A DNA stretch of 63,879 nt, filler included, from Phoronis australis (taxonomy: Eukaryota > Animalia > Phoronida), in assembly GCA_002633005.1 (NCBI GenBank). It is 8 parts of 8 records of this genome, joined end to end, with 100 filler letters (N's around TTAATTAATTAA, not from the genome) between each part and the next. Parts side by side here need not be neighbours in the genome. Positions count along the whole stretch, not along the records: positions 1 to 27,158 come from NMRA01000882.1; 7 more parts are not named here. The stretch is one strand, 5' to 3'. Below are positions 657 through 39,245 of this stretch, piece after piece. A model generated the notes under the pieces. It worked only from the letters and a program-made list of their open reading frames with translations. It was not told the DNA's origin and searched no databases. The position numbers were made by a program, and so were the translations under genes. Every line of letters starts with the position of its first letter. Position 1 is the stretch's first letter.

Positions 657-2872
657 AGGGTTTGACGCAAACGCGGGCTGATACCGTCAAGTGAAATCCC
701 AGTCACTCTGTCTAACCTAAACACGACCAAACTTTAAAGAAACAATATAACAAGAAGAGAGTACAACACTAGAATACAGTTTACTATTTTTGCAATTCAC
801 ATGTGTTAGGTCGGCATAGTCAAACCTTAGAGAGACTACCTTCAAAAGGTAAAAGCCTATCATGCAAAAACGGCGATTAAACAAACTGGAGGATAAAATT
901 GAAATATTTGACGCTAGTTACTGAATAATGTTTAATGAAAGATTTTCAGCATGATGATGAAAGCATATACATTCATGCCCGGTGACAACACGTGCATCTC
1001 TGAATACTTTCAATTCAATAAATGCAAGTGGTAATGACAACTTGTGTTAATTAAAGTGTATGCAAATGACTATAAAGCATTGTGCCAGAAACCATTGACG
1101 CATCTCCATTGTAATCCGAAGTAAATGCTTAGGAAATGTCAGTCACTCAGCAAAACTCGATTATGTTATCAACGTGAATTTTGTTTTAGTTTCCTGCCAA
1201 ATGATGTAAAGGTTGGAAGACGGCATTTGGTTACAAGACTATCAATTGCAATGACAGAATTCATCAAATTGGCAGATGAGGATTCTGAGCGAGAACTGGA
1301 GAAGTCTTACGCAGACAGAGAGGAGAGTGGAGACGGGCATTAAACCGAAGTACCGGAAGAATCAGAAAATGAATTTGACTTCCAGTCAGCGAACTTTAAT
1401 CGGCTTTGTGCCGGCTCGGCCAACTTGCAGGAGAAATGATGCAGTCATAAGTGAGCCCCAATCAACTGAACCAAGGAATCGTCAACATTAACAAAACAAA
1501 CACTCAGTAATCAATGACGAGGGTTACAGTAAACCCGAGTAACTTGTGGTTGTCATGATAGAATGAGCACGGCGAGGCTAAAAAAAATTGGCCAAATCAC
1601 AATCAAGGTCCATATTCGGTGGCAAGTAACAAGCTTTATAAACAACATGTCCTATAAAAATTATATCATTATTTTGACCCTTCCCGTGAAAATATCAAGA
1701 AGTCTACTATCTGATATCTTCCCTATATCTATTTTGTGGTCTTCAAGGTACTTGAAAATGAGTACAACAGGAACAATATTTAATATACACATGCAATATG
1801 AACGATTGCGTCTGCAGTAACAATAGCTATTATGGAATATGGTCCCTATGTGTCTTATGTATTTCTATAACATTTTACATGATAAACTGCTTACGTTTGA
1901 CCTACATGTATTGATTTGGCACGTGTCAGAACTCAACTGTCTCCATCAACTTTCAACTACGACGACACTCAGTTCAAAAGTATCCTGCAGCTGCATGCCA
2001 CCAGGTCCTCTAGCAAATACGCTGACCATAGTAACTCATGGTATATGTATATAGGATATATTGACTTGCTTGATGACTACATGTACTAGAGAGTCCACTT
2101 AGATAAATCACGATACATCGGACAGATAGTGGCATCTTAACTGGCCTCTAGGTTCATCTATATAAATTAAGAGTAACTCATTATATATCGGATACATTGA
2201 CTTTTCTAATGCCCGTTAGGATCGCACATACAAAGCCTCCTATTTGTGGTGAATTTGGAAACATTTAATATACTGACCTCTTTACTTATCACCAAGAACA
2301 CATATAATATCGGATGCATCGATTCCCGTACTAGCCACTAGGATAGTACATGCTTTTTCAAGGCCCTATTTACAAAACATTATTTAACCAGTGCCACCAG
2401 TGGGTAAGGCTTCTAGTTCGAACTTACGCTATAACGGATACATTCTATGCATGTGTTTCTTAGGCTTGTGGCCGGTACGCCGCCTGTTGGTTTGATCGCA
2501 AAAACAAGGAACTCTTTAATGTACTCTGTCAGGGTACATGTATATCGGATATGTATATGCGTACACTGTAGATTATACAGGTCCATATCGATAACTTGTG
2601 ACCGATAGCTTTGGCTTGCAGCTAAATGTCAAGTCAAGTCAGGATATACATGTATCTGATACCGAGATGATTTATTGAATTGGACCGAGTTTTTAATTAC
2701 AGCACCACAATGTGATAGGACGCAAATGTTTTATGTAAACACGATTGATACGGAACAAGTTGAAACCATTTCGACACCTGCTTGAGAAGTAGAGTGAGTT
2801 GCACTCCATCAGTAACTCTGGAGAAAGACAGTGGTAACATACTTCAGAATTTGATTGGCACACTTATCTTAC

Positions 2873-2971
2873 CGTATTGGGAACTGTGGCATCGGCACCC
2901 TTTTTTAGAAGGAGTTCAACAACAGCTAACTGGCCACACGAAGACGCTTCGTGTAGGGGCGTGTCGCCTTT
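2873..2971 (-). CDS. Ankyrin-repeat exon A (99 nt, phase 0): [33 protein letters not shown]
   Basis: Manual reverse-strand translation gives the G-x-TPLH...G...VVELLL..GAD consensus. Acceptor TTGTTGTAG, donor GTAAGA, no stop. Confidence 0.9.
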
Positions 2972-4158
2972 CTACAACAAGCATTAAAAGCGACTGACAA
3001 ACCATCAAGATAATTACACCATTTCAATGTGTTTGGTGAACAATTCGTGTAAATGAAAACGAGAATGAACTAATTGAAGTCAAAATATCAAAGAATATTT
3101 TATCAAAAATAAAACTAAGTTCAACACGAAGCAGATATGATATCAAACATTATATGATTATTTTCATGCACATAGTAAAAGCAAAAGGAAAATATTTTGG
3201 AAGATTTTAACAACAATTTGGAAATCACGTGCTCAGGAAATAAAATCTGATAGGAAATAAAATCTGATCATATTATGGGAACCATGGTTTTGGTATCAAC
3301 GCACCTTTCCTTCTTTCTTAAACCTTAATAACGATATGTTCACGTGACTCAAATAATGAAAGATAAGTAAACGGTGAAAAATCCAATTCAGCAGTTCCCT
3401 TAATGAGACCCAAATGTGTGTGTAAACACGACTGATACGGAACAAGTTAAAACTATTTTGACACATGCTTGAGAAGTAGAGCGAGTTGCACTCCATCAGT
3501 AAGTCTGGAGAAAGACAGTGACAACGTACGTGTGTTACCGACCGACAAGTTATGGTTCGTAAAAAGAGAACAGTTCTGTGTTAGTCGACTTCAACGGATA
3601 ACTTATAGTGCATCATCAGAAATTAAAGGACTACGAACAAATTTGTTTTTATATCGACGATTTCAATTAAATGTTACTTTGAAGGAGCTTCATTAGAAAC
3701 AATTTTGACAGCCATATACGTGCGTATTTAGCGAATGCGCCAATAACGCGTCTTACTACCAATTTTTTTTTTTGCTCTAGTATTTCGCATGTAGGTATAA
3801 CTAATTTTCACTTGGTTGTTTTATGTCATGAGCCAATTATTTGTACTTTTCATTTTAAGCTAATATTGAGTTAAGAACACCACAGCGTCTATCGTTGTGA
3901 GTGTATAATCAGGCTCCAGTCATATTTATTTTTAGAAACTTGACTTTACAATTATGGACACCCAAATCCCACTACTAATCCTCACATTAACGACGCTTCA
4001 ACAAAGTTTCGAAATTTTTAAAAATTCGATGTAATTTCAGTGACAATAAGACAAAAAATGTACATTTTGACACTTGCTTGAGAGTTACACTCCATCAGTA
4101 AGTCTGGAGAAAGACAGTGATAACATACTTCAGAATTTGATTGGCACACTTATCTTAC

Positions 4159-4257
4159 CGTATTGGTAGCTGTGGCATCGGCACCCTTTTTTAGAAGGAG
4201 TTCAACAACCTCTAGCTCGCCAGACAAAGACGCAGAGTGCAGGGGCGTATCGCCTTC
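4159..4257 (-). CDS. Ankyrin-repeat exon B (99 nt): [33 protein letters not shown]
   Basis: Intact ankyrin consensus and donor GTAAGA. The acceptor is TTGTTGAAG (AAG rather than YAG, so weaker). Confidence 0.8.
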
Positions 4258-4835
4258 CTTCAACAAGCATTAAAAGCGATTGACAATCCATAAACATAAT
4301 TACACCATCTCCATGTGTTTGGTGAACTACAAGTGTAAATGAAAACGAGGTTGACCTAATTAAAATCAAAATGTCAAAGAATATTATCAAAACTAAAACT
4401 GAGTTCAACATGAAGCAGATATGATATAAAACATTATATGATTATTTTCATACACATAGTAAAAGCAAAAGGGAAATATTTTAGAAAATTGTAACCACAT
4501 TTTTGAAATTTTGTGCTCAAGATTGATAGGAAATAAAATCTAATCATATTATGGGAAATATGGTTTTGGTATCAACGCACCTTTCCTTCATTCTTCAATC
4601 TTAATAACGATATGTTCACGTGACTCAAATAATGAGAGATAAGTAAACGGTGAAAAATCCAATTCAGCAGTTCCCTTAATGAAACCCAAATGTGTGTGTA
4701 AACACGACTGATACGGAACAAGTTGAAACCAATTTGACACCTGATTGAGAAGTAGAGTGAGTTGCACTCCATCAGTAAGTCTGGAGAAAGACAGTGATAA
4801 CACACTTCAGAATTTGATTGGCACACTTATCTTAC

Positions 4836-4934
4836 CGTATTGGTAGCTGTGGCATCGGCACCCTTTTCTAGAAGGAGTTTAACAACATCTAGCTCGCCAT
4901 CCTTAGACGCGAAGTGCAGGGGCGTGTCGCCTTC
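4836..4934 (-). CDS. Ankyrin-repeat exon C (99 nt): [33 protein letters not shown]
   Basis: Intact ankyrin consensus, TAG acceptor, GTAAGA donor. Confidence 0.9.
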
Positions 4935-5058
4935 CTACAACAAGCATTAAAACGATTGACAAACCATAAATATAATTACACAATTTCAATGTGTTTGGTG
5001 AACAACTCGTGTAAATGAAAACGAGGTTGACCTAATTAAAATCAAAATGTCAAAGAAT

Positions 5059-5350
5059 NNNNNNNNNNNNNNNNNNNNNNNNNNNNNNNNNNNNNNNNNN
5101 NNNNNNNNNNNNNNNNNNNNNNNNNNNNNNNNNNNNNNNNNNNNNNNNNNNNNNNNNNNNNNNNNNNNNNNNNNNNNNNNNNNNNNNNNNNNNNNNNNNN
5201 NNNNNNNNNNNNNNNNNNNNNNNNNNNNNNNNNNNNNNNNNNNNNNNNNNNNNNNNNNNNNNNNNNNNNNNNNNNNNNNNNNNNNNNNNNNNNNNNNNNN
5301 NNNNNNNNNNNNNNNNNNNNNNNNNNNNNNNNNNNNNNNNNNNNNNNNNN
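5059..5350. other. Plain assembly gap (292 N) inside the ankyrin-exon array
   Basis: N run without the linker. Both flanks are short-unit intron sequence, so further exon copies may be hidden. Confidence 0.95.
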
Positions 5351-5406
5351 TCTGGAGAAAGACAGTGATAACATACTTCAGAATTTGATTGGCACACTTA
5401 TCTTAC

Positions 5407-5505
5407 CGTATTGGTTGCTGTGGCATCGACACCCTTTTTTAGAAGGATTTCAACAACATCTAGCTTGCCATACCTAGACGCAAAGTGCAGGGGCGTGTCG
5501 CCTTT
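5407..5505 (-). CDS. Ankyrin-repeat exon D (99 nt): KGDTPLHFASRYGKLDVVEILLKKGVDATATNT
   Basis: Intact ankyrin consensus, TAG acceptor, GTAAGA donor. Confidence 0.9.
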
Positions 5506-8500
5506 CTACAACAAGCATTAAAACGATTGACAAACCATAAATATAATTACACCATTTCAATGTGTTTGGTGAACAACTCGTGTAAATGAAAACGAGGTTG
5601 ACCTAACTGAAGTCAAAGTGCCAAAGAATATTATCAAAAATAAAACTGAGTTCAACATGAAGCAGATATGATATCAAACAGTATATGATTATTTTCATAC
5701 ACATAGTAAAAGCAAAATGGAAATATTTTAGAAAATTGTATCCACATTTTTGACGTTTCGTGTTCAAGATTGATAGGCAATAAAATCTGATCATATGATG
5801 AGAACCATTGTTTTGGTCAGCAGTTCCCTTAATAAAACCCTATATGTACAATAACAGTTTTGATGTCCACAGTTTTTAAGCATTATTCATAATACGAAAA
5901 ATGGTCTACATACAAAACCTTAACACAAGCATTGTGCACTGTGAGCAAAACAGACGCGGTACAGCATGGGAAGTAACAAGACACTAACACTTTTAAAACA
6001 GTGGTTTGTAATACAATCACGTGACTCGTCTTCAAGTCGCGGACAGGGGGGCGGTTGCTTGGAAACTTTCAGTACGGTGTACCGTAACATAGGTGTCAAT
6101 CCTCAGCACCTGAAGCACCATCAGGCAAAGTTTTTTTCGATTGTGTGCCAAACAAAAACCACAAAGTTACCCATAGCCGTTCTGGTGACACCTGATGGAC
6201 CGTCGGTTGACCAGAGTGATGCTGCCATGGGTTTACAATATCGATTGTTGTCGCGTCAGAACGTTGGTTTGCATCTTAACAATACATGTACCTGAATCAA
6301 ATATCAAGCGAAGCTCGGTCTAAACCCCGCCAACTGAATTCGGTCAACTTTTTGTCGCAGTGAGAATAGCCATCAAGAAACAATCTCTTGCGTTTCAGTA
6401 ATACACAATATGCACTCAGATTCCAAGTGACATTTATTTGACCACCTGAGCATACACCGTATGCAATATATTTATTGAACACATTGCAATGAACATTACT
6501 CCTAAAGAGGAACAACCAGAACGAACATTTGTAAGAGCAGAAACATGTAAACCATTGCAGATCAGTGGAATGCGACGCGTAACCAGGCACATGCTTCTAC
6601 ATGTATATCTGCTGTTTGTAAAATACGGACATTTTCCAACTGAGGTGGGTCCCATATGCCTGGTGTTACATTTGCTAGCGCGGGTAGATATCCTGTGTAT
6701 CAGTGGATGCGTTTTCTGTGCTTTGTAATTATTTAATTCAACGCAAGGTTGTAAATACTCTCAGATACAGTGCGATAAAGATATAAGAAAACCCAAGACA
6801 CATTGGCCAGTTCTTAGTTAATTTTAAGTTTGTATAAGGATGCCAATAAAATCTTTACTGACATCACACTTATTGTCTCAACTGTACAAAATGCTTCGGA
6901 TCTTTCTGACAATAGTCTGTTCCCACGACAATCTTAGTGTCTTTACCTGTAAGCAAGCCCCCTTAATAACCAACGAAATGTCCATGTGCATTATCAATAT
7001 TATGTTGCGGCCTGCAACGGAAATGTATCAGTAAAAGAACCGTTATTCCTACATTTGAAGAGCACACCAAAATTGAAATGTTAAACAAATTTAAGTAAAT
7101 TTTGACATGACGATGTGCCGTAGCACAGTTTCGCTGACTTGCGTACTTAATCTTATTGAGAAGCGTGGAATAAGCACCACTCCAAGCTACTTTGTGGTGC
7201 CACTCTACGGGAAGTATAAAAATCGGTTACTTACACAAGCACTGCCTCAGCAACTTTTGGATTGCCATGATCAACAGGATCGCATAAGAGCAGCAAGAAT
7301 CAGGGGAATTTTTCCATTCATGTGTTTCACGTATGTAGCCCTTATGCACTCCATTGTAAGTTCATGTATACATGTATATCTTTTGGATTAGTGCATGGTT
7401 GTAAGTCTTCATGTATTTTTGGGTCTAGGCTTTGCCGTAAACACGGGCTGATACCGTCAAGTGAAATCCCAGTCACTCTGGCTAAGCTGTGGACGGAAAT
7501 CATTAAACAAGACGAAACTTTTACTGATATTACATAACAAGAAGAGAGTACAACACTAGATTGCAGTTCGCTATTTTTGCATTTCACGTGTTTTAGGTCG
7601 GCATCGTCAAACCATAGAGATATTACAATCAAAGGTAAAAAAATATTAATGCAAAAACAACGATTATACCAACTGGAGGATAAAATTGACATATTTGACG
7701 CTAGTTACTGAAATATGTTAAACGAAATATTTTCAGCATGATCATGAAAGCATATACACTTATGCCCGGTGGCAACACGTGCATCTCTGAATACTTTCAA
7801 TTCAATAAATGCAAGTGGTACTGACAACTTGTGTTAATTAAAGTGTATGCAAACCTTATATAAACATTGTGCCAGAAACCATTGATGCATCTCCATTGTA
7901 AAACGAATCAATGTTTAGGAAAGGTCAGTCATTCAGCAAAACGCGATTACACTGCCCAACATGAATTTTCTTAGTTTCCTGCAAATGATGTGAAGGGTGG
8001 AAGACGGCATTTGGTTACAAGACAATCAAGTGCAATGAAAGAATACATCAAATTGGAAGAAGAGGATTTTGAGCGAGAACTGAACAAGTCTTAGGCAGAC
8101 AGAGAGGAGAGTGGAGACAAGCATTAAACCGAAGTACCGGAAGAATCAGAAAATGAATTTGACTTCCAGTCAGCGAACTTTATTCGGCTTTGGGGCCGGC
8201 TCGGACAACTTGCAGGAGAAATGATGCAGTCATATGTGAGCCCCAATCAACTGAACCAAGGAATGGTCAACATTAACAAAACAGACACTCAGTAATCAAT
8301 GACGAGGGTTACAGTAAACCCGAGTCACTTGTGGTTGTCATGATAGAATGAGCACGGCGAGGCTAAAAACGATCGTATCATATAACTGCAATATCTGGGT
8401 TGTTTTAAAGTAGCGTCTTACTAGGTTTGTAATGTAAAATATTTTTGCACAAGAACCACCGAATAAAATTCCATAGCCTAATGCATCACAGTTGTATAAA

Positions 8501-10490
8501 AGGGTTAGTACACTACAACATGTGGTCACAACTCACTTCTATCATGCAACAATACCTAAGGTTGCGGTTAATTGAATACGTTCTTGATCAGACGGAGGAA
8601 GTATCAAAAGTTTTTCTAGACGGTGACACATTGCATATCTTAACACAGTATAATTAGAACTTCTTCTTTTGCAATGTGATTCTTACAAAAAGAAAATAGT
8701 AAGTAGCTACTTTTTACAAAAACCTTATCGGTGGTATTTGCCCAGTTTGTAATACATTCATCAGTTGTTCAAATGGATTAGCAATGCTGGGCCCAGTGTT
8801 CAAATTGTGAACAGTAAAAAATGGTACTGTTGGGGGGTACGTACACTGCGCAGTCAATCAACGTGAAATTTGACTAAGTTACAAATGTATGGGATGGTCT
8901 CGAGTTTTGTGCTGCATCTACTAGTTTGTTTGTTACAAGTTGTCTTGAGAGGTAGAGAAAATTCCTCTGTAACATCAGTTGTCACATGACGTGTCTTCTA
9001 GGATGTTACTGGCTAACCCCTGTGTGTCATTTTATTGTCAGCGAACTTGACAATGTCTATGCTTTTTGTCATACTGGATGCATTTTGGAAATACCAGTAT
9101 TCAGTTCAAGAGAACCGCGGGTACGAAAAAACACATTAGGGCAATACTTTATAGTACACTACACGGGTTTACGTACAATGCACTTCAATGACTTGTCAGG
9201 TTAATAAAAATTCCTTAGATTATACTGAGAGTAAGTTCATTTACCAAATGTATTCAGAGAGAATAAATAAAAAGTACAGCATACACGTCCATTTCTGCCT
9301 GTCAATCTTTGAAAACAGGCACATGTTAAAATATAGGGGTAGTTGCACTACATAAATCCTAATATTTCACTCAAAACAAATGTATTTGTAAGTAACACGC
9401 TTTAACCTAGCTTTTTAATTGAGGAAGCTGTCTGTGACAAGTGTTGCTTACTTACCGTGTAATGTTTTTGCTTCATGGTATATGTTCATATCGGCGTACG
9501 TACACTACATGTCAATGACATGTCAGGTTTGTAACGAAATACTGAGAATCTATTGAGAGATAGCTGATTTACTAAGTCAATTAATTCAAAGAGGAAAAAA
9601 AAAAGCACACATATCTACCATACTTTGAAAATCAAAATAATCGGGTATGTAAGCTGCACAAATGCTAAAAATTCACTCAAAACAAATGTATTTGCAATAA
9701 ACACCCATTCAACCTAACATTTGAAGGAAGGACACTGTGTATAACCAATGCTGCTCACTTACCAATTTTAAGTTCATGGCATTTGTAAATATTGGGGTAC
9801 GTACATGTACACTACATCACCTTTTCTGCATCACATGGTAACACAATGCTGTATGACAATTTATTTTTCTTTGGTTTTAATAAGCACCATGTTGTTATTT
9901 AAAAGGCAATAATTTTATTTGAAATGACAATTTGTGTTAATGATTTCCACATGGGGGTACGTACACTACATTCTTATACTAGCCTTTTGGCCCATTTTCA
10001 GCAGAGCAGAACCCAGTCGATATCAAAACCTTTGGTTTGTTCAGATATTGAATAATTTGCTGTGTTGCCTAGGCTAACATATTCTACAGTTCATTTTAGT
10101 ACATAGTGTGTCTTTAACCTTCTTTTCAGTGAGAATTAAACAACATAATTGATAAATTGCGTAACGAGTACCTGTTTTATGATGAACCCTACCATTCCCC
10201 AATGATTAATCATAACTTCATCTAAGTGAATACGAAAGTGACTCAAATTGTTCCCAGCCGTATCAAAGCAATTGCTTACTTAATAAAATGCATTTCTATT
10301 CTGCTGTAGACAGTTAAAAATTGTAATTTTTAAAATGGCCACTCGTATCGCAAAAATGCATGAATTTCATAGATAAAAACATGCATACATTTCTCAAACA
10401 ATGTCCGATTTTTTATTTTCACAGCTATACAACTCTTTGCATGAGACTCGGTTGGCATTTGGTGAGTGTCCAACAATTTTATTTTTTGTC

Positions 10491-11238
10491 AACGGGTGAT
10501 TGGATTCACAAACTAGGCGTGATTAGAACGTTGGATTATCGAGCGAGAACCATCTCCAACACAGAGGAGGACATTGATTTTGACTTAGAACACAACAGAA
10601 CAGTGCTGAAAAGATGTGGGTACCCGAAGTGGTCTTTCCACAAGGCAAACCATGACAGAGTCAGGCCTCAGAACACGCAGCCGGACAATAGGGGAAACAT
10701 CAGGGTAACATTGCCTTTTGTGCCAGGGATCGCTGATCAGATCAAATCACATATGAGGGGACATGGCATTGCTGTTGTATTCAAACCTGTTAACACCATA
10801 AGGAGTCAATTGTTAAATGTGAAAGACAAAACCAACAAAGAGAAAACATCAAATGTGGTGTATGGTATTTCATGCTCGGAACTGGGGTGTGGAGCAGCAT
10901 ATATTGGGGAAACCAAACAAGCCCTGAAAAGTCGTTTCAACCAACTTTGGATGTCCAGTTATGGGGACTGCTATGATTCTGCAGTTTTTACTCACATGGC
11001 TTCCACAGACCATTCTTTCGCCATGGAAGATGTGAAGATCCTGGACAGAGAAGAAAATTGGTTTCGGAGAGGGGTCAAAGAAGCTATCTACGAGAGAATC
11101 GAGCATCCTAGCCTCAATAGACAGGGGCGCTGCGGTTTCACTTACCTAGGACATGAGATAGGGCTCTGAAGAGAATCCCGCAGAAACTGTACGACGGATC
11201 ACATGACAAGTCACGTGACAACTCAGTGGCCTGATGAA
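10491..11238 (+). mobile_element. 5'-truncated Penelope-like retroelement fragment (RT C-terminal region + GIY-YIG endonuclease)
   Basis: ORF 10360-11169 contains HKLGVIRTL..RA, CGYPKW, VTLPFVPG, NVVYGISC..CGAAYIGETKQ.L..R, SAVFTH, ILDREENWFRRGVKEAIY and PSLNR. It is frameshifted near the end. The first ~44 aa of the ORF are read-in from flanking repeat sequence (compare 18433 ff). Confidence 0.9.
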
Positions 11239-13414
11239 ATAAGTTCCCTACCATTTCCCCTAGTTGTCGTTTTATTGCTCAGGCACGTTCGCGCAACTTC
11301 CAGGTTGCCGAACAACGCGTTCAAAGAACTTGTGGCTACTGCAGTTACAGCAAATTTAGCTTTTGGTTCTTTAAGTAAACCATAAAAACTTAAAATGGAT
11401 AATTTTATGTTGAATCCACGTAAATAAAGAAACGGTGGTATCTTTCCTAATGTTAGCCCAACTACTTCACTTGTCTATAAGTGCCGGCGAAACGTGGTTA
11501 TGCAATGACCAGGACATATTTAAAACACATATTTTTAAACAAGCATCAGACACACTGTGTGTATCGGGGTATCGAAACATTGCAGGGTTCATTGCTTCAC
11601 CAAAGATGTCGCGGTGCTCAAACGAACGAAACCTTGTGTATGCAGTTGGTGGTCGACCTTAGTGCTCCACACTGTATAAAGGTTTGCGTTTAAAAGTCAC
11701 ATGAGTAATGCAAATTGTTTTCAAAACCGTGTGCTAAAGTTGTGGTCTCAACATATGAAATATTGACAAGGGACTTTGTTAGAATTGTTGTTGAAGCTCC
11801 ATGTACACGTACGATTCAATGTACGTTCGATAGTGAAAACACTGAGAATCGGGAGGTGCACGTGCAGGGTGGCACTCTCCTGGACTCTCGTGGGATTATT
11901 AAGAGACTTAGCCTGTAACTGTGTATTGACAAAAAATAACAGTCTCAAAGATATTTACTGCCCAATGAATATGACAAAAAACAGTGTTTGATAGTTTTGA
12001 AAGGAGATTTCACCGTGCTCACAACGAAAACACAATTCACACAAGGCATCAAAAATATGATGCTAGTTTTCAACCACATTGCCGAAGAAACTAATTGAAT
12101 TATAATACAACATGTAACCACTAAGACGGTTGTCATTATATCAGGTCATTCATTGAGGTTATAAAGTGTAACACGAATAAATATTTTAATAACAAACATT
12201 ACTCAAAAGGCGATTGCCTGTTTCACATATTTACCAAAGGAGTTTTATAACTTCCACCTTCTCCACAGAATACATTCATTGTAAATATGATGGGAAGTGT
12301 TATGTTTAAGAACTCAAAATCTCACAATTTGAAACCACCAAACTGCACTTCTCACTATATTGTTGAAGTTCCAGCAAACTCGTCAAAATCACTACGATTC
12401 ATTTTCCGTTTAAACATATAATAAATGTTTTGAATTATGACTTTGTCTCATCCTTTTCGAAAATAAGAAATCTTCTGTTCATTCGTTTGGGTTTTTGTGT
12501 TTTGTATAGTGTACACGCTGTTTTTGACGCGCTGTGTCTTGAATAATGTCGTGGTACCCAAAATAAGATTGTCGTGTGAGGGGTGAACCAAACTTATTGG
12601 GTGGGTCCAGACTATAGTGTTTACGTAATCTTTACTTTTGTGGTGAAGATCCACAAGACCACGCATTGTGATTTAGTCTTGTCACTTTTATCCCATTGTC
12701 AACTGTCGCATCAACATTTTTTGAGACGGAAATTCACAACTCGTACAGTGTAGTACTTTATTTGATTATGATCAAAAAATTGCAATTTCTAAAAAGACGA
12801 TGGGATTCGACACTTTTACATGGGCGGCGCAGCACTGAAAAAAGTGGGGGCAAAAGGGCCCAGACCCCTGTGGTGCACCGCAAATAGACCATGGGTGGCG
12901 GAACTTTGAAAAAGTGGGAGCTACAACACCCCAGCCACCCACGGGGCGGCGACCGTGAGATAAGTTGAGAATGGGAATAGCTATTGAAAAGGAGTGTAGG
13001 GAATATTTAGATAACCAAACATTCCATGCCGCCTGTTGGTTTGATCGCAAAAACAAGGAACTCTTTTATGTACTCTGTCAGGGTACATGTATATCGGATA
13101 GGTATATGCGTACACTCTAGATTATACAGGTCCATATCGATAACTTGTGATCGATAGCTTTGGCTTGCAGCTAAATCTTAAATCAAGTCAGAATATATCT
13201 GATACCGAAATGACATCTCGAATTGGACCGAGTTTGCTATTACCGCACCATATTTTGATAGGACGCAAATTTGTGCGTAAACACGATTGAGACGGAACAA
13301 GTTGAAACCATTTTGACACCTGCTTGCGAAGTAGAGTGAGTTGCAGTCCATCAGTAATACTGGAGAAAGACAGTGGTAAAATACTTAAGAATTTGATTGG
13401 CACACTTATCTTAC

Positions 13415-13513
13415 CGTATTGGGAGCTGTGGCATCGGCACCCTTTTTTAGAAGGAGTTCAACAACATCTAGCTTGCCACGCATAGACGCGAAGTGCAGGG
13501 GCGTGTCGCCTTT
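13415..13513 (-). CDS. Ankyrin-repeat exon E (99 nt): [33 protein letters not shown]
   Basis: Intact ankyrin consensus, TAG acceptor, GTAAGA donor. Confidence 0.9.
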
Positions 13514-16368
13514 CTACAACAAGCATTAAAAGCGACTGACAAACTATGAATCTAATTACACCATTTCCATGTGTTTGGTGAACAACTCGTGTAAATGAAA
13601 ACGAGGTTGACCTAATTAAAGTCAAAATGTCAAAGAATATTATCAAAACTAAAACTGAGTTCAACATGAAGCAGATATGATATCAAACATTATATGATTA
13701 TTTTCATACACATTGTAAAAGCAAAAGGGAAATATTTTAGAAGATTGTAACAACATTTTTGAAATGTCGTGCTCAAGACTGATAGGAAATAAAATACGAT
13801 CATATTATGGCAACCGTGGTTTTCGTATCAACGCACCTTTCCTTCTTTCCTAAACCTTAATAACGATATGTTATATATAACTCAAATAATGAAAGCTAAC
13901 GGTGAAAAATCGAATTCAGCAGTTCCCTTAATGAAACCCTATATGTACATTAACAGGGTTGATGTCCACAGTTCTTAGACATTCTTGATAATGCGGAAAA
14001 TGGTCAACATGCAAAACCCAAAAACAAGCGTTGTGCAAGGCGAGCCAAACAGACGCGGTACAGGATGGAAGTATCAAGACATTAACACTTTTAAAACAGG
14101 GTTATGTAATACAATCACGTGACTCGTGTTCATGTCGCGGACAGGCGGGCGGTTGTTTGGAAACTTTCAGTTCGGTGTACCGTAACATAGGCGTCAATCC
14201 TCAGCAACTGAAGCACCATCAGGCACATTTTTTTTTCGATTGTGTGCCAAACAAAAAACACAGAGTTATCCATAGGCGTTCTGTTGACAAATGATGGACC
14301 GTCGGTTGACCAGACTGATGCTGCCATGGGTTTACAATATCGATTGTTGTCGCGTCAGAACGTTGGTTTGCATCTTAACAATACATGTACCTGAATCAAA
14401 TATCAAGCGAAGCTCGGTCTATACCCCGCCAACTGAATTCGGTCAACTTTTTGTCGCTGTGAGAATAGCCATCAGGAATCAATCTCTTGCGTTTCAGTAA
14501 TACACAACATGCACTCAGATATCAGCTGACATTTATTCGACCATCTGAGCATACACTGTATGCAGTAGATGTATTGAACACATTGCAATGAACATTACTC
14601 CTCAAGAGGAACAATCAGAACGAACATTTTTAAGAGCAGAAACATGTAAAGCATTGCAGATCAGTGGAATGCGACGAGTAACCAGGCACATGCTTCTATA
14701 TCTGCTGTTTGGAAATACGGACATTTTCCAACTGAGGTGGGTCATATATGCCTGGTGTTACATTTGCTAGCGCGGGTAGATATCCTGTGTATAAGTGGAT
14801 GCGTTTTTCTGTGTTTTGTAATTATTTAAATACCCTCAGATACAGTGCGATAAAGATATAAGAGAGATAAAGACACATGGGCCTGTTCTTAATTGTTTTA
14901 AGTTTGTATAAGGAAGCCAATCCAATCTTTACTGACATCACGATTATTGTCTCAACTGTACAAAATGCTTCGGATCTTTCTGACAATAGTCTGTTCCTAC
15001 GACAAGCTTAGTGTCTTTACATATAAGCAAGCCCCGTTAATAACCACCCACATGTCCATGTGCATTGTCAATATTATGTTGCGGCTTGCAATGGACATGT
15101 ATCAGTAAAAGAACCGTTATAACTCCAGAACCACTCCAAGCTGCTTTGTGTTGCCACCCTACGGGAAGTATAAAAAGCGGTCAATTACATGTACACAAGC
15201 ACTGTCTCAGCAACTTTAGGATTGCCATACTCAACAGGATCGCACAAAAGTAAATGAAGAGCGGTGCAGCAAGAATCAGGGAAAATTTTCCATTCATGTG
15301 TTTCACTTATATATGTATCCCTTATGCACTCCATTGTAAGTGCACGTATACATGTATTTCCTTTGGATTAGTGCTTGGTTGTAAGTGTCCATGTATTTTT
15401 GGGTCTAGGCTTTGCCGTAAACACGGGCTGATACCGTCAAGTGCGATCCCAGTCACTCTGGCCAACCTGTGGACGGAAATCATTAAACAAGACCAAACTT
15501 TTACTGATACTACATAACAAGAAGAGAGTACAACACTAGAATGCAGTTCGCAATTTTTGCAATTCACGTGTGTTAGCTCGGCATAGTCAAACCTTAGAGA
15601 GATTACCTTCAAAGGTAAACAATATCAATGCAAAAACAACGATTACACAAACTGGAGGATAAAATTGACATATTTGACGCTACTTACTGAAATATGTTTA
15701 ACGAAAGATTTTCAGCATTATCATGAAAGCATATACATTTGTGCCCGGTGGCAACACGTGCATCTCTGAATACTTTCAATTCAATAAATGCAAGTGGTAC
15801 TGACAACTTGTGTTAATTAAAGTGTATGCAAACGTAATATAAAGCATTGTGCCAGAAACCATTGATGCATCTCCATTGTAAAACGAATCAATGTTTAGGA
15901 AAGGTCAGTCATTCAGCAAAACGCGATTACACTGCCCAACATGAATTTTCTTAGTTTCCTGCAAATGATGTGAAGGGTGGAAGACGGCATTTGGTTACAA
16001 GACAATCAAGTGCAATGACAGAATACATCAAATTGGAAGACTAGGATTTTAAACGAGAACTAGACAAGTCTTATGCAGTCAGAGAAGAGAGTGGAGACGG
16101 GTATTAAACCGAAGTACCGGAAGAATCAGAAAATGAATTTGACTTCCAGTCAGCGAACTTTAATCGGCTTTGGTGCCGGCTCAGTCAACTTGCAGGAGAA
16201 ATGATGGACTCTTATGTGAGCCCCAATCAAATGAACGAAGGAATGGTCAACATTAACAAAACATACACTCAGTAATCACTGGCGAGGGTTACAGTAAACC
16301 CGAGTCACTTGTGGTTGTCACGATAGAATGAGCACGGCGAGGCTAAAAACAATCGGCCAAATCACAAC

Positions 16369-18592
16369 CAAGGTCCATATTCGGTGGCAACTTTTGGTGA
16401 AGAGTGAAAGTTGTCATGTAACTTTAAAAGCTGGATTGTTTTAAAGTACCGTCTTCCCAGGTTTGTATTCTAAAATATTTTGCACAAGAAACATCGAATA
16501 AAATTTCATGACCTAATGCATCACAGTTGTATAAAAGGGTACGTACACTACAACTTGCGGTCACAGCTCACTTCTATCATGCAACAATTCATAAGGTTGT
16601 GGTTAATTTAATACGTTCTTGATCAGATTGAGGAAGTATCACATATTAAAGTTGTTCAAGTTGTTCTAGACGATGATATATTGCATATCTTAACGCACTA
16701 TCATGAGAACTTCTTCTCTTGCAATGTGATTCTTACAAAAAGGAAATGGCAAGTAGCTCCTTTTTCAAAAACTTTATTGGTGCTATTTGCCTAGTTTTCA
16801 ACACATGCACCAGTTGGTCAAAATATCTAGGCAATGCTCGGCCCAGTTTTCAACTTGTAAACTGTAAAAAATGGTACTGTTGGAGGGGTACGTACACTGT
16901 GCAGTCAATCAACGAGAAATTTGACTAAGTTACAAATGTATGGGATGGTCTCGAGTTTTGTGCTGCATCTACATGTACTCGTTGGTTTGTTGCAAGTTGT
17001 CTTGAGAGGTAGAGAACCTTCCTCTGCAACATCAGTTGTCACGTGACGTGTCTTCTAGGCTGTTACTGGCTAGCCCCTGTGTGTCATTTTATTGCCAGCG
17101 AACATGTTAATGACCATTGTTTTTGTCATACTTGATGCATTTTGGAAATACCAGTATTCAGTTCATGAGAACTGCGGGTATGTAAAAATAATTGTGGGCA
17201 ATACTTTATAGCACAGTGGTTGAAGGTACGTACACTACACAGGCTTACGTGCGCTACACTTCAATGACTCGTAAGGTTAATAAAAAGTTCTTAGAATATA
17301 CTGAGAGTTTGTTCATTTACCAAATGTATTCAGAGAGAACAAATAAAAAGTACAGCATACACGTGCATTTCTGCCTGCCATTCTGTGATAACAGGAAAAT
17401 TTTAAAATATAAGGGTAGTTGCACTACATCAATCCTAATATTTCGCTCAAAACAAATGTATTTGTAATTAACACCCTTTGACCTGGCATTTTAATTGAGG
17501 AACCTGTCTGTGACAAGTGTTGCTTACTTACTGTGTAATGTGTATGCTTCATGGTATTTGTTCATATCGGGGTACGTACACTACATGTCAATGACATGTC
17601 AGGTTTGTAACGAAATACTAAGAATCTATTGAGAGATAGCTGATTTATTAAGTCAATTCAAAGAGGAAAAATAAAAAGCACACACATCTGCCATACTTTG
17701 AAAATCAAAATAATGGGGTATGTACGCTACCCAAATGCGAAAATTTTACTCCAAATAAATGTATTTGCAACAAACACCCATTCAACCTAACATTTGAAGG
17801 AAGGACACTGTGCATGATGAATGCTGCTCACTTACCAAGTGATATTTCAATGTCATGGCATTGGGGTACGTACACTACATGTACATCACTTTTTCTGCAT
17901 CACATCGTAACACAATGCTGTATGGCCATTTAGTTAACTTTGGTGATAATAAGCACCATGTTGTTATTTAAATGGCATTAATTTCATTTGCAATGACCAT
18001 TTGTGTTACTGAATTCCACATGGGGGTACGTACACTACATTCTTCTAGCCTTTTGGCCCATTTTCAGCATAGCAGAGCCCAGTCGATATCAAAACCTTTG
18101 GTTTGTTCAGATATTGAATAGTTTGCTGTGTTTCCTAGGCTAACATATTCTACAGTTCTTTTTAGTACACTGTGTGTCTTTAACCTTCTTTTCAGTAGGT
18201 GAGGGTTAAAAAACAAAATTGATAAATTGCGTAACGAGTACCTGTTTTATGATGAACCCTACCATTCCTCAAAGATTAATCACTACTTCCTCTGCAAGTC
18301 AATATGAAAGTGACTCAAATTGTCCCCAGCCGTATCAAAGCAATTGCTTACTTAATAACATACATTTCTTTTCTGCTGTTGACAGTTAAAAATTTTAATA
18401 TTTAAATGGGCCACTCGTAACGCAAAAAATGCATGAAATTCATAGACAAAAACATGCATACATTTCTTAAACATTGTCCGATTTTTTTATTTCCACAGCT
18501 ATACAACTCTTTGCATGAGACTCGGTTGGCATTTGGTGAGTGTCCAACAATTTTATTTTTTGTCGGTAACACAGTCTCGAATATGGGTCTTG
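16369..18592. mobile_element. Putative ~2.2-kb non-autonomous DNA transposon within the intronic module
   Basis: Imperfect terminal inverted repeats CAAGGTCCATATTCG / CGAATATGGGTCTTG (13/15) and repeated internal GGGTACGTACACTAC motifs. Truncated copies at ~1604, ~8370-10490 and ~23548-24775. Confidence 0.5.
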
Positions 18593-20743
18593 ATAATGAT
18601 TTACCCGAATACATACATGCAAGCCTAGTACATGTAGGTGGCTTAGCACTTCATCTAGACCGGGGTCGAGTGCCTGGCATCGAGTGCCCTAGAATGAAAG
18701 CAGTTAGCTTGTTATTGGTAAAATTTGATAGTACACTTGCAAGGAAGCGAGTCCTTTATCGTAACCCCACCAGTGTGCTTGGTCGAAGTGCAATTCCTTG
18801 AAATGTGTCGAACAAAGTATGGTTCCCGACTGAATCGCATGTTCCAAAATGACATTCCACACTCTCGTGCGGACGATAAACCGATGTCATTTCTGTTCAA
18901 CTTTCACGTTTTTTTTGAAATATGAAAATTCAGAGACGTTCTCAGTCAAGTTGCAGTTACTATAGCGTCCACTAACACACCTTTTAATATCTACAAAGGC
19001 AGTTCTCCGCCAACGTTCCTCCAAACTCAGTTTCGCACTGGTGAAAACTACAACGACTAACTGTCTTCCAGCCACTACGTACATTTACATGTACATGCAC
19101 AACAACAATCGAAATGTTTTGCTTGTTTCCTAGCAACAGCTATACTAAAGGCTACTAAATGCCTTCAGATGTATTAATAAAAATGTTTTTGAGACACAGG
19201 GTCTTGGTTGAAACTTATTATGGACAGTGATTAAGAGACTTAGGCTGTAACTGTGTATTGACACGAGATAACAGTCTCAAAGATATTTACTGCTCAATGA
19301 ACATGACGAAAACAGTGTTTGATAGTTTTGAATGGAGATTTCACCGTGCTCACAACGAAAACACAATTCACACAAGGCATCAAGAATTTGATGCTAGTTT
19401 TCAATCACATTGCCGAAGAAAATGATTGAATTATAATACAACATGTAACCACTAAGACGGTTGTCATTATATCAGGTCATTCACTTGAGGTTATAAAGTG
19501 TAACCCGAATAAATATTTTAAAAACAAACATTACTCAAAAGGCGATTGCTTGTTTCATATAATTACCAAAGGAGTTTTATAACTTCCTTCTTCTCCAAAG
19601 AATACATTCATTCTAAATATAATGGGAAGTGTCATGTTCAACCACTCAAAATCTCACAACTTGAAACCCCCAAACTGCACTTCTCACTGTATTGTTGAAG
19701 TTCCAGCAAACTCGTCAAAATCACTACGATTCATTTTCCGTTTAAACATATAATAAATGTTTTGAATTATGACTTTGTCTCATCCTTTTCGAAAATAAGA
19801 AATCATTTGTTCATTCGTTTAGGTTTTTATGTTTTGTAGAGTGTACACGCTGTTTTTGACGCGCTGTGTCTTGAATAATGTCGTGGTACCCGAAATAAGA
19901 TTGTCGTGTGAGGGGTGAACCAAACTTATTGGGTGGGTCCAGACTATAGTGTTTACGTAATTTTTACTTTTGTGGTGAAGATGCACAAGACCACGAATTG
20001 TGATTTAGTCTTGTCACTTTTATCTAAATTTCAACCGTCGCATCAACATTTTTTGAGACGGAAATTCACAAGTCGTGCAGTGTAGTACTTGATTATGATC
20101 AAACGATTGCAATTTCTAAAAAGACGATGAGATTCGACACTTTTACATGGGCGGCGCAGGACTGAAAAAAGTAGGGGCAAAAGGGCCCAGACCCTTGTGG
20201 TGCACCGCAAATAGACCATGGATGGCCCCACCTTAAAAAGTGGGAGCTACAACAACCCAGCCACCCATGGTGTGGCGCCCGTGAGAGAAGTTGAGAATGG
20301 GAATAGCTATTCAAAAGGAATATAGGAATATTTAGATAACCAAACATTCCATGCCGCCTGATGGTTTGATCGCAAAAACAAGGAACTCTTTCATGTACTC
20401 TGTCAGGATACATGTATATCGGCTAAGTATATGCGTACACTCTAGATTATACAGGTCTATATCGATAACTTGTGATCGATAGCTTTGCCTTGTAGCTAAA
20501 TCTCAAGTCAAGTCAGGATATATCTGATACCGAGATGATATATCGAATTGGACCGAGTTTGCTACGTATTACCGCACCATATTTTGATAGGACGCAAATT
20601 TGTGCCTAAACACGATTGACACGGAACAAATTGAAACCATTTCGACACCTGCTTGAGAAATAGAGTGAGTTGCACTAAATCAGTAACACTGGAGAAAGAC
20701 AGTGGTAACATACTTCAGAATTTGATTGGCACACTTATCTTAC

Positions 20744-20842
20744 CGTATTGACAATTGTGGCACCGGCACCCTTTTTTAGAAGGAGTTCAACAACATCTAG
20801 CTTGCCACCCATAGACGCGATGTGCAGGGGTGTGTCGCCTTG
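20744..20842 (-). CDS. Ankyrin-repeat exon F (99 nt): [33 protein letters not shown]
   Basis: Intact ankyrin consensus (GAD changed to GAG), TAG acceptor, GTAAGA donor. Confidence 0.88.
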
Positions 20843-21428
20843 CTACAACAAGCATTAAAAACGACTGACAAACTATAAAGATAATTACAGCATTTCCATG
20901 CGTTTGGTGAACAACTCGTGTAAATGAAAACGAGGTTGACCTAATTAAAGTCAAAATGTCAAAGAATATTATCAAAACTAAAACTGAGTTCAACATGAAG
21001 CAGATATGATATCAAACATTATATGATTATTTTCATACACATTGTAAAAGCAAAAGGGAAATATTTTAGAGGACTGTAACAACATTTTTGAAATCTCGTG
21101 CTCAAGATTGATAGGAAATAAAATCTGATCATATTATGGGAAACATGGTTTTGGTATCACCGCACCTTTCCTTCTTTCCTAATCCTTAGTAACGATATGT
21201 TCACGCGACTCAAATAATGAAAGATAAGTAAACGGTGAAAAATCAAATTCAGCAGTTCCCTTAATGAAACCCAAATGTGTGTGTAAACACGACAGGTACG
21301 GAACAAGTTGAAACCATTTTGACTCCTGCTTGAGAAGTAGAGCGAATTGCAATCCAGAGAAAGACTCTAATAACAGACCTCATCATTTGATTACATACTT
21401 CAGATTTTGATTGGCACACTTATCTTAC

Positions 21429-21527
21429 CGTATTGACAACTGTGGCATAGGCACCCTTTATTAGCAGGAGTTCAACAACATCTAGCTTGTCAAACATAGA
21501 CGCGATTTGCAGGGGCGTGTCGCCTTT
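21429..21527 (-). CDS. Ankyrin-repeat exon G (99 nt, framework-degenerate): KGDTPLQIASMFDKLDVVELLLIKGAYATVVNT
   Basis: Open frame and intact splice sites, but TPLH->TPLQ, G13D and GAD->GAY. Confidence 0.75.
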
Positions 21528-24500
21528 CTACAACGAGCATTAAAAGCGACTGACAAACCATAAACATAATTACACCATTTTTATGTGTTTGGTGAACGAC
21601 TCGTGTAAATGAAAACGAGCTGACCTAATTAAAGTCAAAATGTCAAAGAATATTATCAAAACTAAAACTGAGTTCAACATGAAGCAGATATGATATCAAA
21701 CATTATATGATTATTTGTATACACATTGTAAAAGCAACCATGGTTTTGGTATCAACGCACCTTTCCTTCTTTCCTAAACCTTAGTAACGATATGTCATAG
21801 AGTGTACATGACTCAAATAATGAAAGCTAAGTAAACGGTGAAAAATCAAATTCAGCAGTTCCCTTAATGAAACCCTATATGTACATTAACAGGGTTGATG
21901 TCCACAGTTTTTAGACATTCTTCATTATACGGAAAATGGTCAACATGCAAAACCCAAAAAACAAGCGTTGTGCACGGTGAGCCAAACAGACGCGGTACAG
22001 GATGGAAGTATCAAGACACTAACACTTTTAAAACAGTGTTATGTAATACAATCACGTGACTCGTGTTCATGTCGCGGACAGGCGGGCGGTTGTTTGGAAA
22101 CTTTCGGTACGGTGTACCGTAATATAGGCGTCATTCCTCAGCACCTGAAGCACCATCAGGCACAGTTTTTTTTCGATTGTGTGCCAAACAAAAACCACAG
22201 AGTTATCCATAGGCGTTCTGTTGACACCTGATGGACCGTCGGTTGACCAGAGTGATGCTGCCATGGGTTTACAATATCGATTGTTGTCGCGTCAGAACGT
22301 CGGTTTGCATCTTAACAATACATGTACCTGAATCAAATATCAAGCGAACTGAATCCGGTCAACTTTTTGTTGCAGTGAGAATAGTCATCAGGAATCAATC
22401 TCTTGCGTTTCAGTAATACACAACATGCACTCAGATTTCAACTGACATTTATTCGACCATCTGAGCATACACTGTATGCAGTATATTTTTTGAACACATT
22501 GCAATGAACATTACTCCTAAAGAGGAACAGTCCGAACGAACATTTGTAAGAGCAGAAACATGTAAACCATTGCAGATCAGTGGGATGCAACGCGTAACCA
22601 GGCACATGCTTCTATATCTGCTGATTGGAAAATACGGACATTTTCCAACTGAGGTGGGTCATATACATGCCTGGTGTTACAATTGCTGGCGCGGGTAGAT
22701 ATCCTGTGTATAAGTGGATGCGTTTTTCTTTTGGATTGCCATGATCAACAGGAACGCATAAAAGTAAATGAAGAGCGGTGCAGCAAGAATCAGGGAAAAT
22801 TTTCAATTCATGTGTTTCACTTATATATGTATACCTTATGCACTCCATTGTAAGTGCATGTATACATGTATTTCCTTTGGATTAGTGCATGGTTGTAAGT
22901 CTTCATGTACTTTTGGGTCTAGGCCTTGCCGTAAACACGGGCTGATACCGTCAAGTGAAATCCCAGTCACTCTGGCTAACGTGTGGACCGAAATCATTAA
23001 ACAAGACCAAACGTTTACTGATACTACATAACAAGAAGAGAGTACAACACTAGAATGCAGTTCGCTATTTTTGAAATTCACGTGTGTTAGCTCGGCATAG
23101 TCAAACCTTAGAGAGATTATCTTCAAAGGTAAAACAATATTAATGATGTGAAGGGTGGAAGACGGCTTTTGGTTACAAGACAATCAAGTGCAATGACAGA
23201 ATACATCAAATTGGACGATTAGGATTTTAAGCGAAAACTAGACAAGTCTTATGCAGTCAGAGAGGAGAGTTGAGACGGGTATTAAACCGAAGTACCGGAA
23301 GAATCAGAAAATGAATTTGACTTCCAGTCAGCGAACTTTAATCGGCTTTGGGGCCGGCTCGGCCAACTTGCAGGAGAAATGATGCAGTCATACGTGAGCC
23401 CCAATCAAATGAACCAAGGAATGGTCAACATTAACAAAACAGACACTCAGTAATCACTGACGAGGGTTAAAGTAAACCCGAGTCACTTGTGGTTGTCATG
23501 ATAGAATGAGCACGGCGAGGCTAAAAACAATCGGCCAAATCACAATCAAGGTCCATATTCGGTGGCAACTTTTGGTGAAGAGTGAAGGTTATCATATAAC
23601 TGTCAAAGCTCGGTTGTTTTAAAGTACCGTCTTCCCAGGTTTTTATTCTAAATAGTTTTGCACAAGAACCACCGAATAAAATTTCATAACCTAATGCATC
23701 ACAGTTGTAGAAAACGGTACGTACATTACAACTTGTGGTAACAGCTCACTTCTATCATGCAACAATACATAAGGTTGCGGTTAATTGAATGCGTTCTAGA
23801 TCAGATTCATCAAGTATCACATATTAAAGTTGTTCAAGTTGTTCTAGACGATGATACATTGCATATCTTAACACAGTATAATGAAAATTTCTTCTTTTGC
23901 AATGTGATTCTTACAAATAGAAAATGGCAAGTAGCTACTTCTTTCAAAAGCTTGATTGGTGGTATTTGCCCAGTTTGTAATACATTCACCAGTTAGTCAA
24001 AATATTTTAGCAATGCTCGGCCCCTTGTTCAACTTGTAAACAGTAAAAAATGGTACTGGTTGGGGAGTACGTACACTGCGCAGTCAATCAACGTGAAATT
24101 TGACTAAGTTACAAATGTATGGGATGGTCTCGAGTTTTGTGCTGCATCTACTAGTTTGTTTGTTGCAAGTTGTCTTGAGAGGTAGAGAACCTTCCTCTGT
24201 AACATCAGTTGTCACGTGACGTGTCTTCTAGGATGTTACTGGCTAACCCCTGTGTGTCATTGTATTGCCAGCGAACTTGATAATGTCCATTGCTTTTTGT
24301 CATACTGGATGCATTTTGGAAATACCAGTATTCAGTTCATGAGAACAGCGGGTATGTAAAAATACTTGTCGGCAATACTTTATAGCACAGGGGTTGAAGG
24401 TACATGTACGTACACTACACGGGTTTACGTACACTGCACTTCAATGACTTGTCAGGTTAATAAAAATTCCTTAGAATATACTGAAAGTTAGTTCATTTAC

Positions 24501-24828
24501 CAAATGTATTCAAGGAGAACAAATAAAAAGTACATCATACACGTGCATTTCTGTCTATCATTTTTTGAAAACAGGCACAAGTTAAAATATAAGGTTAGTT
24601 GCACTACATAAATGCTAATATTTCACTCAAAACAAATGTATTTGTAAGTAACACCCTTTAACCTATCTTTTTAATTGAGGAAGCTGTCTGTGACAAGTGT
24701 TGCTTACATACCGTATAATGTTTTTGCTTCATGTTGTTTGTTCACATCGGGGTACGTACACTACATGTCAATGACAGAGAAAGACACTAATGACAGACCT
24801 CGCAATTTGATTGACACTCTTATCTTAC

Positions 24829-24927
24829 CATATTAACAACCGTGGCATCGACGCCCTTTTCTAGAAGAAGTTCAACAACTGCTAGCTGGCCACGTGAAGA
24901 CGCTTCGTGTAGGGGTGTGTCGCCTTC
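24829..24927 (-). CDS. Ankyrin-repeat exon H (99 nt): EGDTPLHEASSRGQLAVVELLLEKGVDATVVNM
   Basis: Intact ankyrin consensus, TAG acceptor, GTAAGA donor. Confidence 0.9.
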
Positions 24928-31082: not shown

Positions 31083-31228
31083 AGGTAGCATGGTCTAACT
31101 GTAAAACATGCCTTCCTGAACATTGTAGACATAAATACCACCACATCACACTAAGGTAGCATGGTCTAACTGTATAACATGCCTTCCTGAACATTGTAGA
31201 CATAAATACCACCACATCACACTAAGGT
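31083..31228. repeat. 71-bp direct tandem repeat x2
   Basis: AGGTAGCATGGTCTAACTGT...CATCACACTA repeated with one mismatch. Confidence 0.9.
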
Positions 31229-31624: not shown

Positions 31625-31813
31625 ATGGAGCAGAGTCCAAAAGGATCCTTGAAGCACATCATGATGGAGCAGAGTCCAAAAGGATCCTTGAAGCACATCA
31701 TGATGGAGCAGAGTCCAAAAGGATCCTTGAAGCACATCATGATGGAGCAGAGTCCAAAAGGATCCTTGAAGCACATCATGGAGCAGAGTCCAAAAGGATC
31801 CTTGAAGCACATC
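31625..31813. repeat. 36/39-bp minisatellite x5 in the predicted PKN 3' UTR
   Basis: (ATG)ATGGAGCAGAGTCCAAAAGGATCCTTGAAGCACATC in five copies, identical apart from the optional leading ATG. Confidence 0.95.
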
Positions 31814-31937
31814 AGCACCAATGTGGCATGATCACCAACATACAACATTCGTAGAACACTCCTCAGAATGCATAAAACATGCAAGCCTACATCCCACGAC
31901 CAGAGATTGATTTTAGGCCATTAGATTGTTCCCAATG

Positions 31938-39139: not shown

Positions 39140-39245
39140 GATCCATTGCCCATCCATCTATTGCCCATACATCCATTGCACATCCATCTATTACCCACAC
39201 ACCCATTGCACATTCATCCATCTTCTATCCATCCATCGTACATCT
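39140..39245. repeat. CATC/ATCC-rich simple tandem repeat
   Basis: Repeated CATCCATTGC / CATCCATCTATT units. Confidence 0.7.

Follow-up and report, generated by a model that had tools for sequence, protein, structure and literature searches.

A tandemly duplicated array of single-ankyrin-repeat exons in Phoronis australis, spliced as a family and under diversifying selection at four codons

The window analysed here, 63,879 nt of eukaryotic DNA (about 37% GC) from the phoronid Phoronis australis (assembly GCA_002633005.1), is composed of unrelated pieces joined by linkers of 100 nt (44 N, TTAATTAATTAA, 44 N) that start at positions 27159, 30671, 32264, 36002, 55548, 58754 and 62118. The first piece, 1-27158, carries an array of exons each encoding a single ankyrin repeat; since this piece stops at 27158, the sequence to the right of it cannot be read as the neighbourhood of the array. 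A six-frame scan combined with protein and DNA profiles found exactly eight ankyrin exons in the window, designated A (2873-2971), B (4159-4257), C (4836-4934), D (5407-5505), E (13415-13513), F (20744-20842), G (21429-21527) and H (24829-24927). All eight lie on the minus strand, are 99 nt long, open and in phase 0, and are bounded by an AG acceptor and a GTAAGA donor. The acceptor is TAG in seven exons and AAG in exon B. A sequence-only reading of the window had proposed eight open 99-nt exons on the minus strand, and it was right in number, length and position. With the protein and DNA profiles, no ninth, decayed or inverted copy was detected on either strand of the window.

One profile fits all eight exons, and the two that were scanned against Pfam, A and H, scored 37.6 and 34.8 bits with Ank (PF00023), for which the cut-off is 21.1 bits. 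Across the eight repeats, 17 of the 33 residues are invariant, the mean column identity is 82%, and identity to exon A ranges from 70 to 82%; seven framework codons have undergone silent changes only. Exon E is the copy nearest to the remaining ones, exon G carries the framework changes H7Q and G13D and is possibly decaying, and exon H is the most divergent copy, with a helix 1 like that of A. By parsimony, positions 8, 11, 12 and 31 have changed six to seven times each, and positions 1, 14, 16 and 23 two to three times each. The residues that the sequence-only reading had listed for positions 1, 8, 11-12 and 30-31 are exact for all eight exons, but its view that variation is focused at these positions needs qualification, because position 1 is hardly more variable than positions 14, 16 and 23.

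The eight exons are the product of recent tandem duplication of exon-plus-intron units. The short units are about 0.6-0.7 kb and the long units 3-8 kb in length, with a mutual identity of 79-98%. The two long introns, E-D (7.9 kb) and F-E (7.2 kb), which lie within 5506-20743, are mutual duplicates over about 6.4 kb at 88% identity and contain transposon debris. In addition, 2105 of the 2231 bases upstream of exon H (24928-27158) match the F-E intron at 92%, and 1364 of the 2872 bases downstream of exon A (1-2872) match it at 89%. The match upstream of H suggests that this sequence is probably one more intron from within the array, truncated where the piece ends, and the array or its gene probably continues beyond the left edge of the window as well. 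Judged from the sequence, the array is therefore probably open at both ends, with more exons to be expected past each of them. Since every exon is 99 nt long and in phase 0, the gain, loss or skipping of any one of them preserves the reading frame.

The introns had been described as full of indels and transposon debris. Such debris does lie deep in the long introns, but the flanks adjacent to the exons are well conserved, and some 250 aligned columns of them contain four small indel events. Within these conserved flanks a short variable spot recurs near the expected branch-point region, roughly 40 nt before every exon acceptor. Divergence is 0.153 in the exons against 0.112 in the flanks. In the approximately unbiased test, the exon data reject the intron tree (P = 0.004), whereas the exon tree is acceptable to the intron data (P = 0.22), a conflict that is too weak as proof of gene conversion. 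The D-C intron includes a gap of 292 N at 5059-5350.

Across the exons, the pairwise proportions of nonsynonymous and synonymous differences (pN and pS) are 0.157 and 0.142, respectively. A one-ratio model gave a ratio of nonsynonymous to synonymous rates (omega) of 1.18 with a likelihood of -410.73, equal to the GY value from IQ-TREE. The site models assigned 34% of the codons to omega 0, 55% to omega 1 and 12% to omega of about 8.5. On the combined flank-plus-exon tree, the comparison of M1a with M2a gave a likelihood ratio test (LRT) statistic of 17.1 (P = 2e-4), and M8a/M8 agrees; the posteriors of codons 8, 11, 12 and 31 were 0.83, 0.85, 1.0 and 1.0. With the intron tree the LRT statistic rose to 38.9, and codons 30, 14, 16 and 1 were also selected, with posteriors from 0.98 to 0.66. 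Codon 1 depends on the tree, its posterior being 0.66 on the intron tree and below 0.3 on the combined tree. The result held in all eight leave-one-exon-out runs (LRT 11.4-17.4). None of six intron pseudo-codon controls was significant, none of 62 null sets simulated with conversion and double-base changes reached the observed value of 15.2, and no intron triplet had more than five parsimony changes. In simulations of neutral decay all eight exons stayed intact in 2.9% of cases, which is modest evidence when taken alone. Statistically, diversifying selection on codons 8, 11, 12 and 31 is established. A site-wise rate test of the kind proposed with the sequence-only reading, here on the eight copies, came out in its favour, with the class of omega above 1 falling on these four codons, while the part given to position 1 in its set of variable sites was overstated.

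These codons can be compared with the positions that are randomised in designed ankyrin binder libraries. The library numbering equals the exon position plus 2, as derived from the consensus DxxGxTPLHxAAxNG in PMC4308713. Exon codons 8, 11, 12 and 31 therefore correspond to library positions 10, 13, 14 and 33, and exon codon 1 to position 3. Positions 2, 3, 5, 10, 13 and 14 are randomised in one library (excerpt of PMC3308923) and positions 2, 3, 5, 10, 13 and 33 in another (excerpt of PMC4308713); according to the same excerpts, one of the two sources puts position 33 outside the direct binding surface and the other keeps position 14 fixed. Two further positions that the libraries randomise show little change in the array, exon position 3 being always D and exon position 33 being T in seven of the eight exons. 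The seven library-defined positions hold 31 of the 58 changes (permutation P = 3e-4), and the six left when exon position 8 is excluded (2, 3, 5, 13, 14 and 33 in library numbering), a set chosen ahead of the library papers, hold 24 of the 58 (P = 0.005). The sections seen of PMC8602657, PMC8229355 and PMC1553488 gave neither a library position list nor an ankyrin-specific statement on exons.

Reads were available from four DNA runs of one sample, which contain the stretch, and from three RNA runs of 2026 under the same species label (X5, X6 and X7); one further possible RNA run contained next to none of the words of the stretch. The RNA mapping covered 2780-5058 with a likeness threshold of 80% and drew on 18-19% of each run. 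In X5 and X7 the depth was 3.4-9.6 in five exon bins against 0-1.4 in the adjoining intron bins, so that two of the three RNA runs support coverage limited to exons. The first mate of the exon reads in these two runs was almost always on the plus strand, as expected of minus-strand RNA. In the sixth exon bin, the first 34 bases of exon B, the depth was 0 and 0.43. A-like reads cover exon A and receive splices at its 5' border, the RNA on exon B lies mainly over its 3' part, the reads mapped to exon C have D/E-like letters, and three reads of X7 fall on exon D. Mapping over the D-H stretch was dominated by repeat-element reads.

Twelve RNA reads carry repeat-to-repeat joints at exon borders, all in frame. 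The joint 2970>4158 was found in one read of X5 and three of X7, the joint 2972>4162, with two letters between, in three of X5, the joint 4933>4835, which goes back 99, in three of X5, and the joint 4933/4836, with one letter between, in two of X7. Reading by hand resolved each of them into an exact in-frame exon-to-exon splice plus one variant border letter, and no exon-exon joint occurred in the DNA run X4. In addition, nine X7 reads continue beyond the 3' end of a B-like exon with letters whose in-frame translation is EGKTAYDVCG. It resembles KFGKTPFDLA, the start of the designed C-cap (excerpt of PMC4308713), and a search for the motif in the window found none; these reads enter a capping-type exon that the window lacks. 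Splicing and expression are established for the exon family, as distinct from the eight copies individually. Reads this short do not single out one copy, a limit that bears also on alternative splicing of the repeat exons. An absence of spliced transcripts, which the sequence-only reading had named as the outcome that would count against it, was not what the RNA gave: exons of the family are joined in frame.

Variants at position 8 exist beyond those of the eight copies, both in a DNA contig and in X7 reads. Codon 8 of an A-like exon changes toward K in five of six X7 reads and in none of six X5 reads, and among the rows listed one DNA contig reads M8, T10, M11, Y12 and K14, as deduced from a shared depth value. 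The summed depth of DNA contigs is 320-834 in five exon bins, 42.8 in the sixth and 39 in a unique stretch, which hints at tens of copies but gives no valid copy number and is unused as such.

By DNA depth, the long introns contain extended tracts of high-copy repeats. Among these, within the E-D intron, a fragment of a Penelope-type retroelement lies at 10327-11169 (or about 10489-11169) on the plus strand, opposite to the exons. Its assignment is based on the top Atlas cluster (55% HTH_animal, 22% GIY-YIG, score 0.96), and no Pfam match was above the cut-off; RNA of this element family on the fragment has the first mate mostly on the minus strand. A short element of G/C runs at 12817-12865 and about 20190, where both DNA and RNA reach a very high depth and the flanks are of many kinds, is a small high-copy repeat, and short repeat-element fragments in the small units (about 3440-3500, 4476-4512 and 4687-4731) attract reads with unrelated flanks. 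At about 12316/19652, ten X7 reads with the first mate on the plus strand cross between the intron paralogs, in a form that is also present in DNA; they show minus-strand intronic RNA and probably another copy or allele of the unit.

The sequence-only reading had placed the effector domains of the encoded protein outside the window. In agreement with this, Pfam, profile and exon scans found no other domain on the array piece, and among 22 open candidates with splice borders that a search for further exons in the piece produced, none is convincing by sequence. A scan of metagenomes kept 80 loci, the best of which reaches 73% identity along a portion of one repeat. Among its best 150 entries listed, the representatives search likewise gave only generic ankyrin proteins, as did the Atlas, the PDB and two word-index searches, the latter two being biased to fungal NOD-like receptors (NLRs) by their seed row. 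The second-ranked metagenome match, L002 2475-6014 (plus strand), encodes a protein of 1179 aa with a NACHT-like domain and near-identical ankyrin repeats, of the fungal NLR type. Among the database proteins, P0151 of Crassostrea, P0188 of Mytilus (with CARD) and P0185 of Haliotis are nSTAND3-ankyrin proteins whose long, internally similar arrays vary at the same positions. These molluscan proteins are possibly an under-described class of invertebrate receptors.

Elsewhere in the window, six exons at 48324-52313 (minus strand) encode the N-terminal third of an alpha-catenin, with 55-67% identity to the 13 proteins compared. Its top matches come from invertebrate bilaterians, but total scores for bryozoan, hemichordate and echinoderm proteins are too similar to single out a clade. 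It was rejected as a neighbour of the array because it lies on a separate piece bounded by linkers. A cysteine-rich open frame at 29711-30019 (minus strand) has no Pfam match; it resembles a CXC motif and may be carried by a transposon. Tandem repeats of an ordinary kind, their periods ranging over 15-132 nt, lie at 360-640, 29223-29485, 31083-31228, 31625-31814, 33065-33272 and 39141-39236.

The ankyrin exon array of this animal is real, its exon family is expressed, and it is under positive selection. With a probability of roughly 0.55, we consider that the eight exons, the splicing of their family and the four fast residues reflect the variable sensor of an intracellular receptor for non-self, the signalling domain of which would lie beyond the piece. 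This domain is likely a STAND or ROCO nucleoside triphosphatase (NTPase), if it is not a death fold. Because neither an effector domain nor a close homolog was found, the immune role, though likely, is inferred and not proven. Units of 0.6-0.7 kb and 3-8 kb with one phase-0 exon each were copied head to tail, as the units themselves record; exons of the family are joined repeat to repeat and repeat to cap; and selection diversifies codons 8, 11, 12 and 31, as the site models indicate. By analogy with binder libraries and fungal NLRs, these sites would line the concave groove, and new copies would alter the binding surface while the scaffold is kept. Unequal crossing-over and conversion among units that are 85-95% identical may shift the number and order of the repeats. 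The ligand, again by analogy, may be a fast-changing foreign or allelic protein, whose binding would switch a cell-death or immune domain. If the missing part is an NTPase or a death domain, the protein would represent a new class of invertebrate intracellular receptors that escape gene predictors, and its binding specificity would be predicted to depend on four to five residues per exon.

Several results weigh against a receptor. The search for a ROC-COR or NACHT/NB-ARC/nSTAND exon found none in the window, and no close homolog emerged, the best-matching repeat in 251 + 114 database proteins agreeing at 23 of 33 residues. The overall omega of 1.18, together with 55% of the codons at omega 1, means that the constraint is loose. 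In 69 internally conserved arrays among the 251 database matches, positions 11, 1, 33, 12, 8 and 32 vary most, with a Spearman correlation of 0.50 to the phoronid array, so that the pattern is typical of its kind and not unique. A structure model of a single repeat had low confidence (predicted local distance difference test score 68, predicted template modelling score 0.31) and was not used for fold searches; the surface mapping therefore rests on the numbering and not on the model. A rival explanation is a young ankyrin expansion in a non-immune protein, for example one with a role in reproduction, adhesion or some other conflict, whose new repeats diverge because constraint has relaxed, and partly through positive selection, until they settle. 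In its favour, the scans brought up no immune domain, omega over all codons is near 1.2, ankyrin arrays in general tolerate most change at these very positions, and fast divergence is a general phase of young repeats, immune or otherwise, according to the part of PMC5120217 consulted. However, omega of about 8.5 at four sites and repeated multi-base changes exceed tolerance, additional variants occur in DNA and RNA, and the internally conserved arrays sit mostly on NACHT, nSTAND3 and Roc proteins, in a sample biased by the fungal seed row. We regard the non-immune expansion as rather unlikely, though it deserves serious attention.

Other unfavourable points concern the expression of these very copies. 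None of 232 mapped RNA reads was at least 99% alike to them, which makes other alleles or paralogs the source of the reads, so that none can be credited to one of the eight copies; the exon depth in X6 was at most 1.1; and in the D-H stretch no exon-exon joint was seen among the 15 of 154 joints listed, while minus-strand RNA in some intron bins equals that in exon bins. The eight exons could accordingly be in part a silent reservoir, comparable to the intronic LRR exons in ROCO genes of brown algae, with some of them skipped or decaying and the expressed reads perhaps coming from a paralogous locus. The D/E-like letters of the reads on exon C, the weak AAG acceptor of exon B with little depth on its 5' part, the direct splicing of a B-like end to the cap though A follows B in the array, and the two framework changes of exon G would fit this. 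It nevertheless appears doubtful, for the frame and the two splice sites are intact in all eight exons, the search of the window gave no inverted or broken copy, reads resembling A and D occur, and RNA and DNA come from different samples, a difference that would by itself lower identity. As to the statistics, one of two off-frame exon controls gave P = 0.036, and five of the 62 null sets exceeded the nominal 5% line. A pseudo-exon with mutation hot spots that was copied by neutral segmental duplication, or alleles wrongly strung together in the assembly, might be suspected from an exon divergence near that of the flanks and from a fragmented assembly with its gap between C and D. Nonetheless, RNA that is limited to exons, spliced and strand-specific, with in-frame joints, largely refutes it; the intron controls lack such a site class, seven framework codons changed only silently, and a pair of alleles cannot account for eight copies that are 8-26% apart. 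We consider this explanation highly improbable. A bolder form of the receptor reading, in which tens of frame-neutral exons that vary in the binding groove would be combined by unequal crossing-over and exon skipping onto a cap and a signalling domain, is put forward only tentatively and seems unlikely at present. Such a natural repertoire resembling designed ankyrin repeat proteins (DARPins) would give each animal many intracellular binders, an ankyrin counterpart of brown-algal ROCO genes and of variable lymphocyte receptors.

Among known systems, the ankyrin arrays of fungal NLRs have selected sites on the inner helix and in the hairpin or loop, identities above 85% over 100 aa and a proposed change of repeat number (excerpt of PMC4986451). 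The phoronid array resembles them in its highly similar ankyrin repeats with a few positively selected sites, although its repeat identities (column mean 82%) fall just short of the 85% line; it belongs to an animal, has one repeat per exon in kilobase units, and shows no NACHT or NB-ARC domain. The ROCO-LRR and NB-ARC-TPR genes of brown algae (Zambounis et al. 2012, PMC3341825; Teng et al. 2024, PMC11378527; both in part) resemble it in their symmetric one-repeat exons, in positive selection on the concave face and in serial splicing of the repeats. All eight phoronid exons are symmetric (99 nt, phase 0) with one repeat each, and their selected sites fall on the concave face as assigned by the library numbering. 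However, the repeats are ankyrin instead of LRR or TPR, the exons are phase 0 and 99 nt, no ROC-COR or NB-ARC core was found, and inverted or inactivated intronic repeat exons were not found in the window. As no NTPase is seen, the array cannot be assigned to either the fungal NLR or the brown-algal family. The molluscan nSTAND3-ankyrin proteins (P0151, P0188 and P0185) and the ANK-Roc protein P0195 have long arrays tied to an NTPase and may show what the missing part looks like, but no repeat of theirs agrees at more than 21 of 33 residues, and they are analogies and not orthologs.

Dscam1 likewise draws receptor diversity from tandemly duplicated exons. The Dscam exons are mutually exclusive, whereas here 12 reads join one repeat exon to the next, which departs from the Dscam pattern of one exon per transcript. 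Exons of 99 nt that encode one repeat are probably frequent in ordinary ankyrin genes of animals; in that case their size alone would not be new, and the combination of recent copying and selection would be what distinguishes the array. In the literature covered, which leaves aside most subscription journals and is weak evidence for that reason, no positively selected one-ankyrin-per-exon array was found in an animal. With the designed ankyrin libraries, the array has in common that its selected codons coincide with library positions and that its family includes a cap-like end exon, and it differs in having no variation at library position 5 and hardly any at position 2. Natural selection here favours much the same positions that protein engineers randomise.

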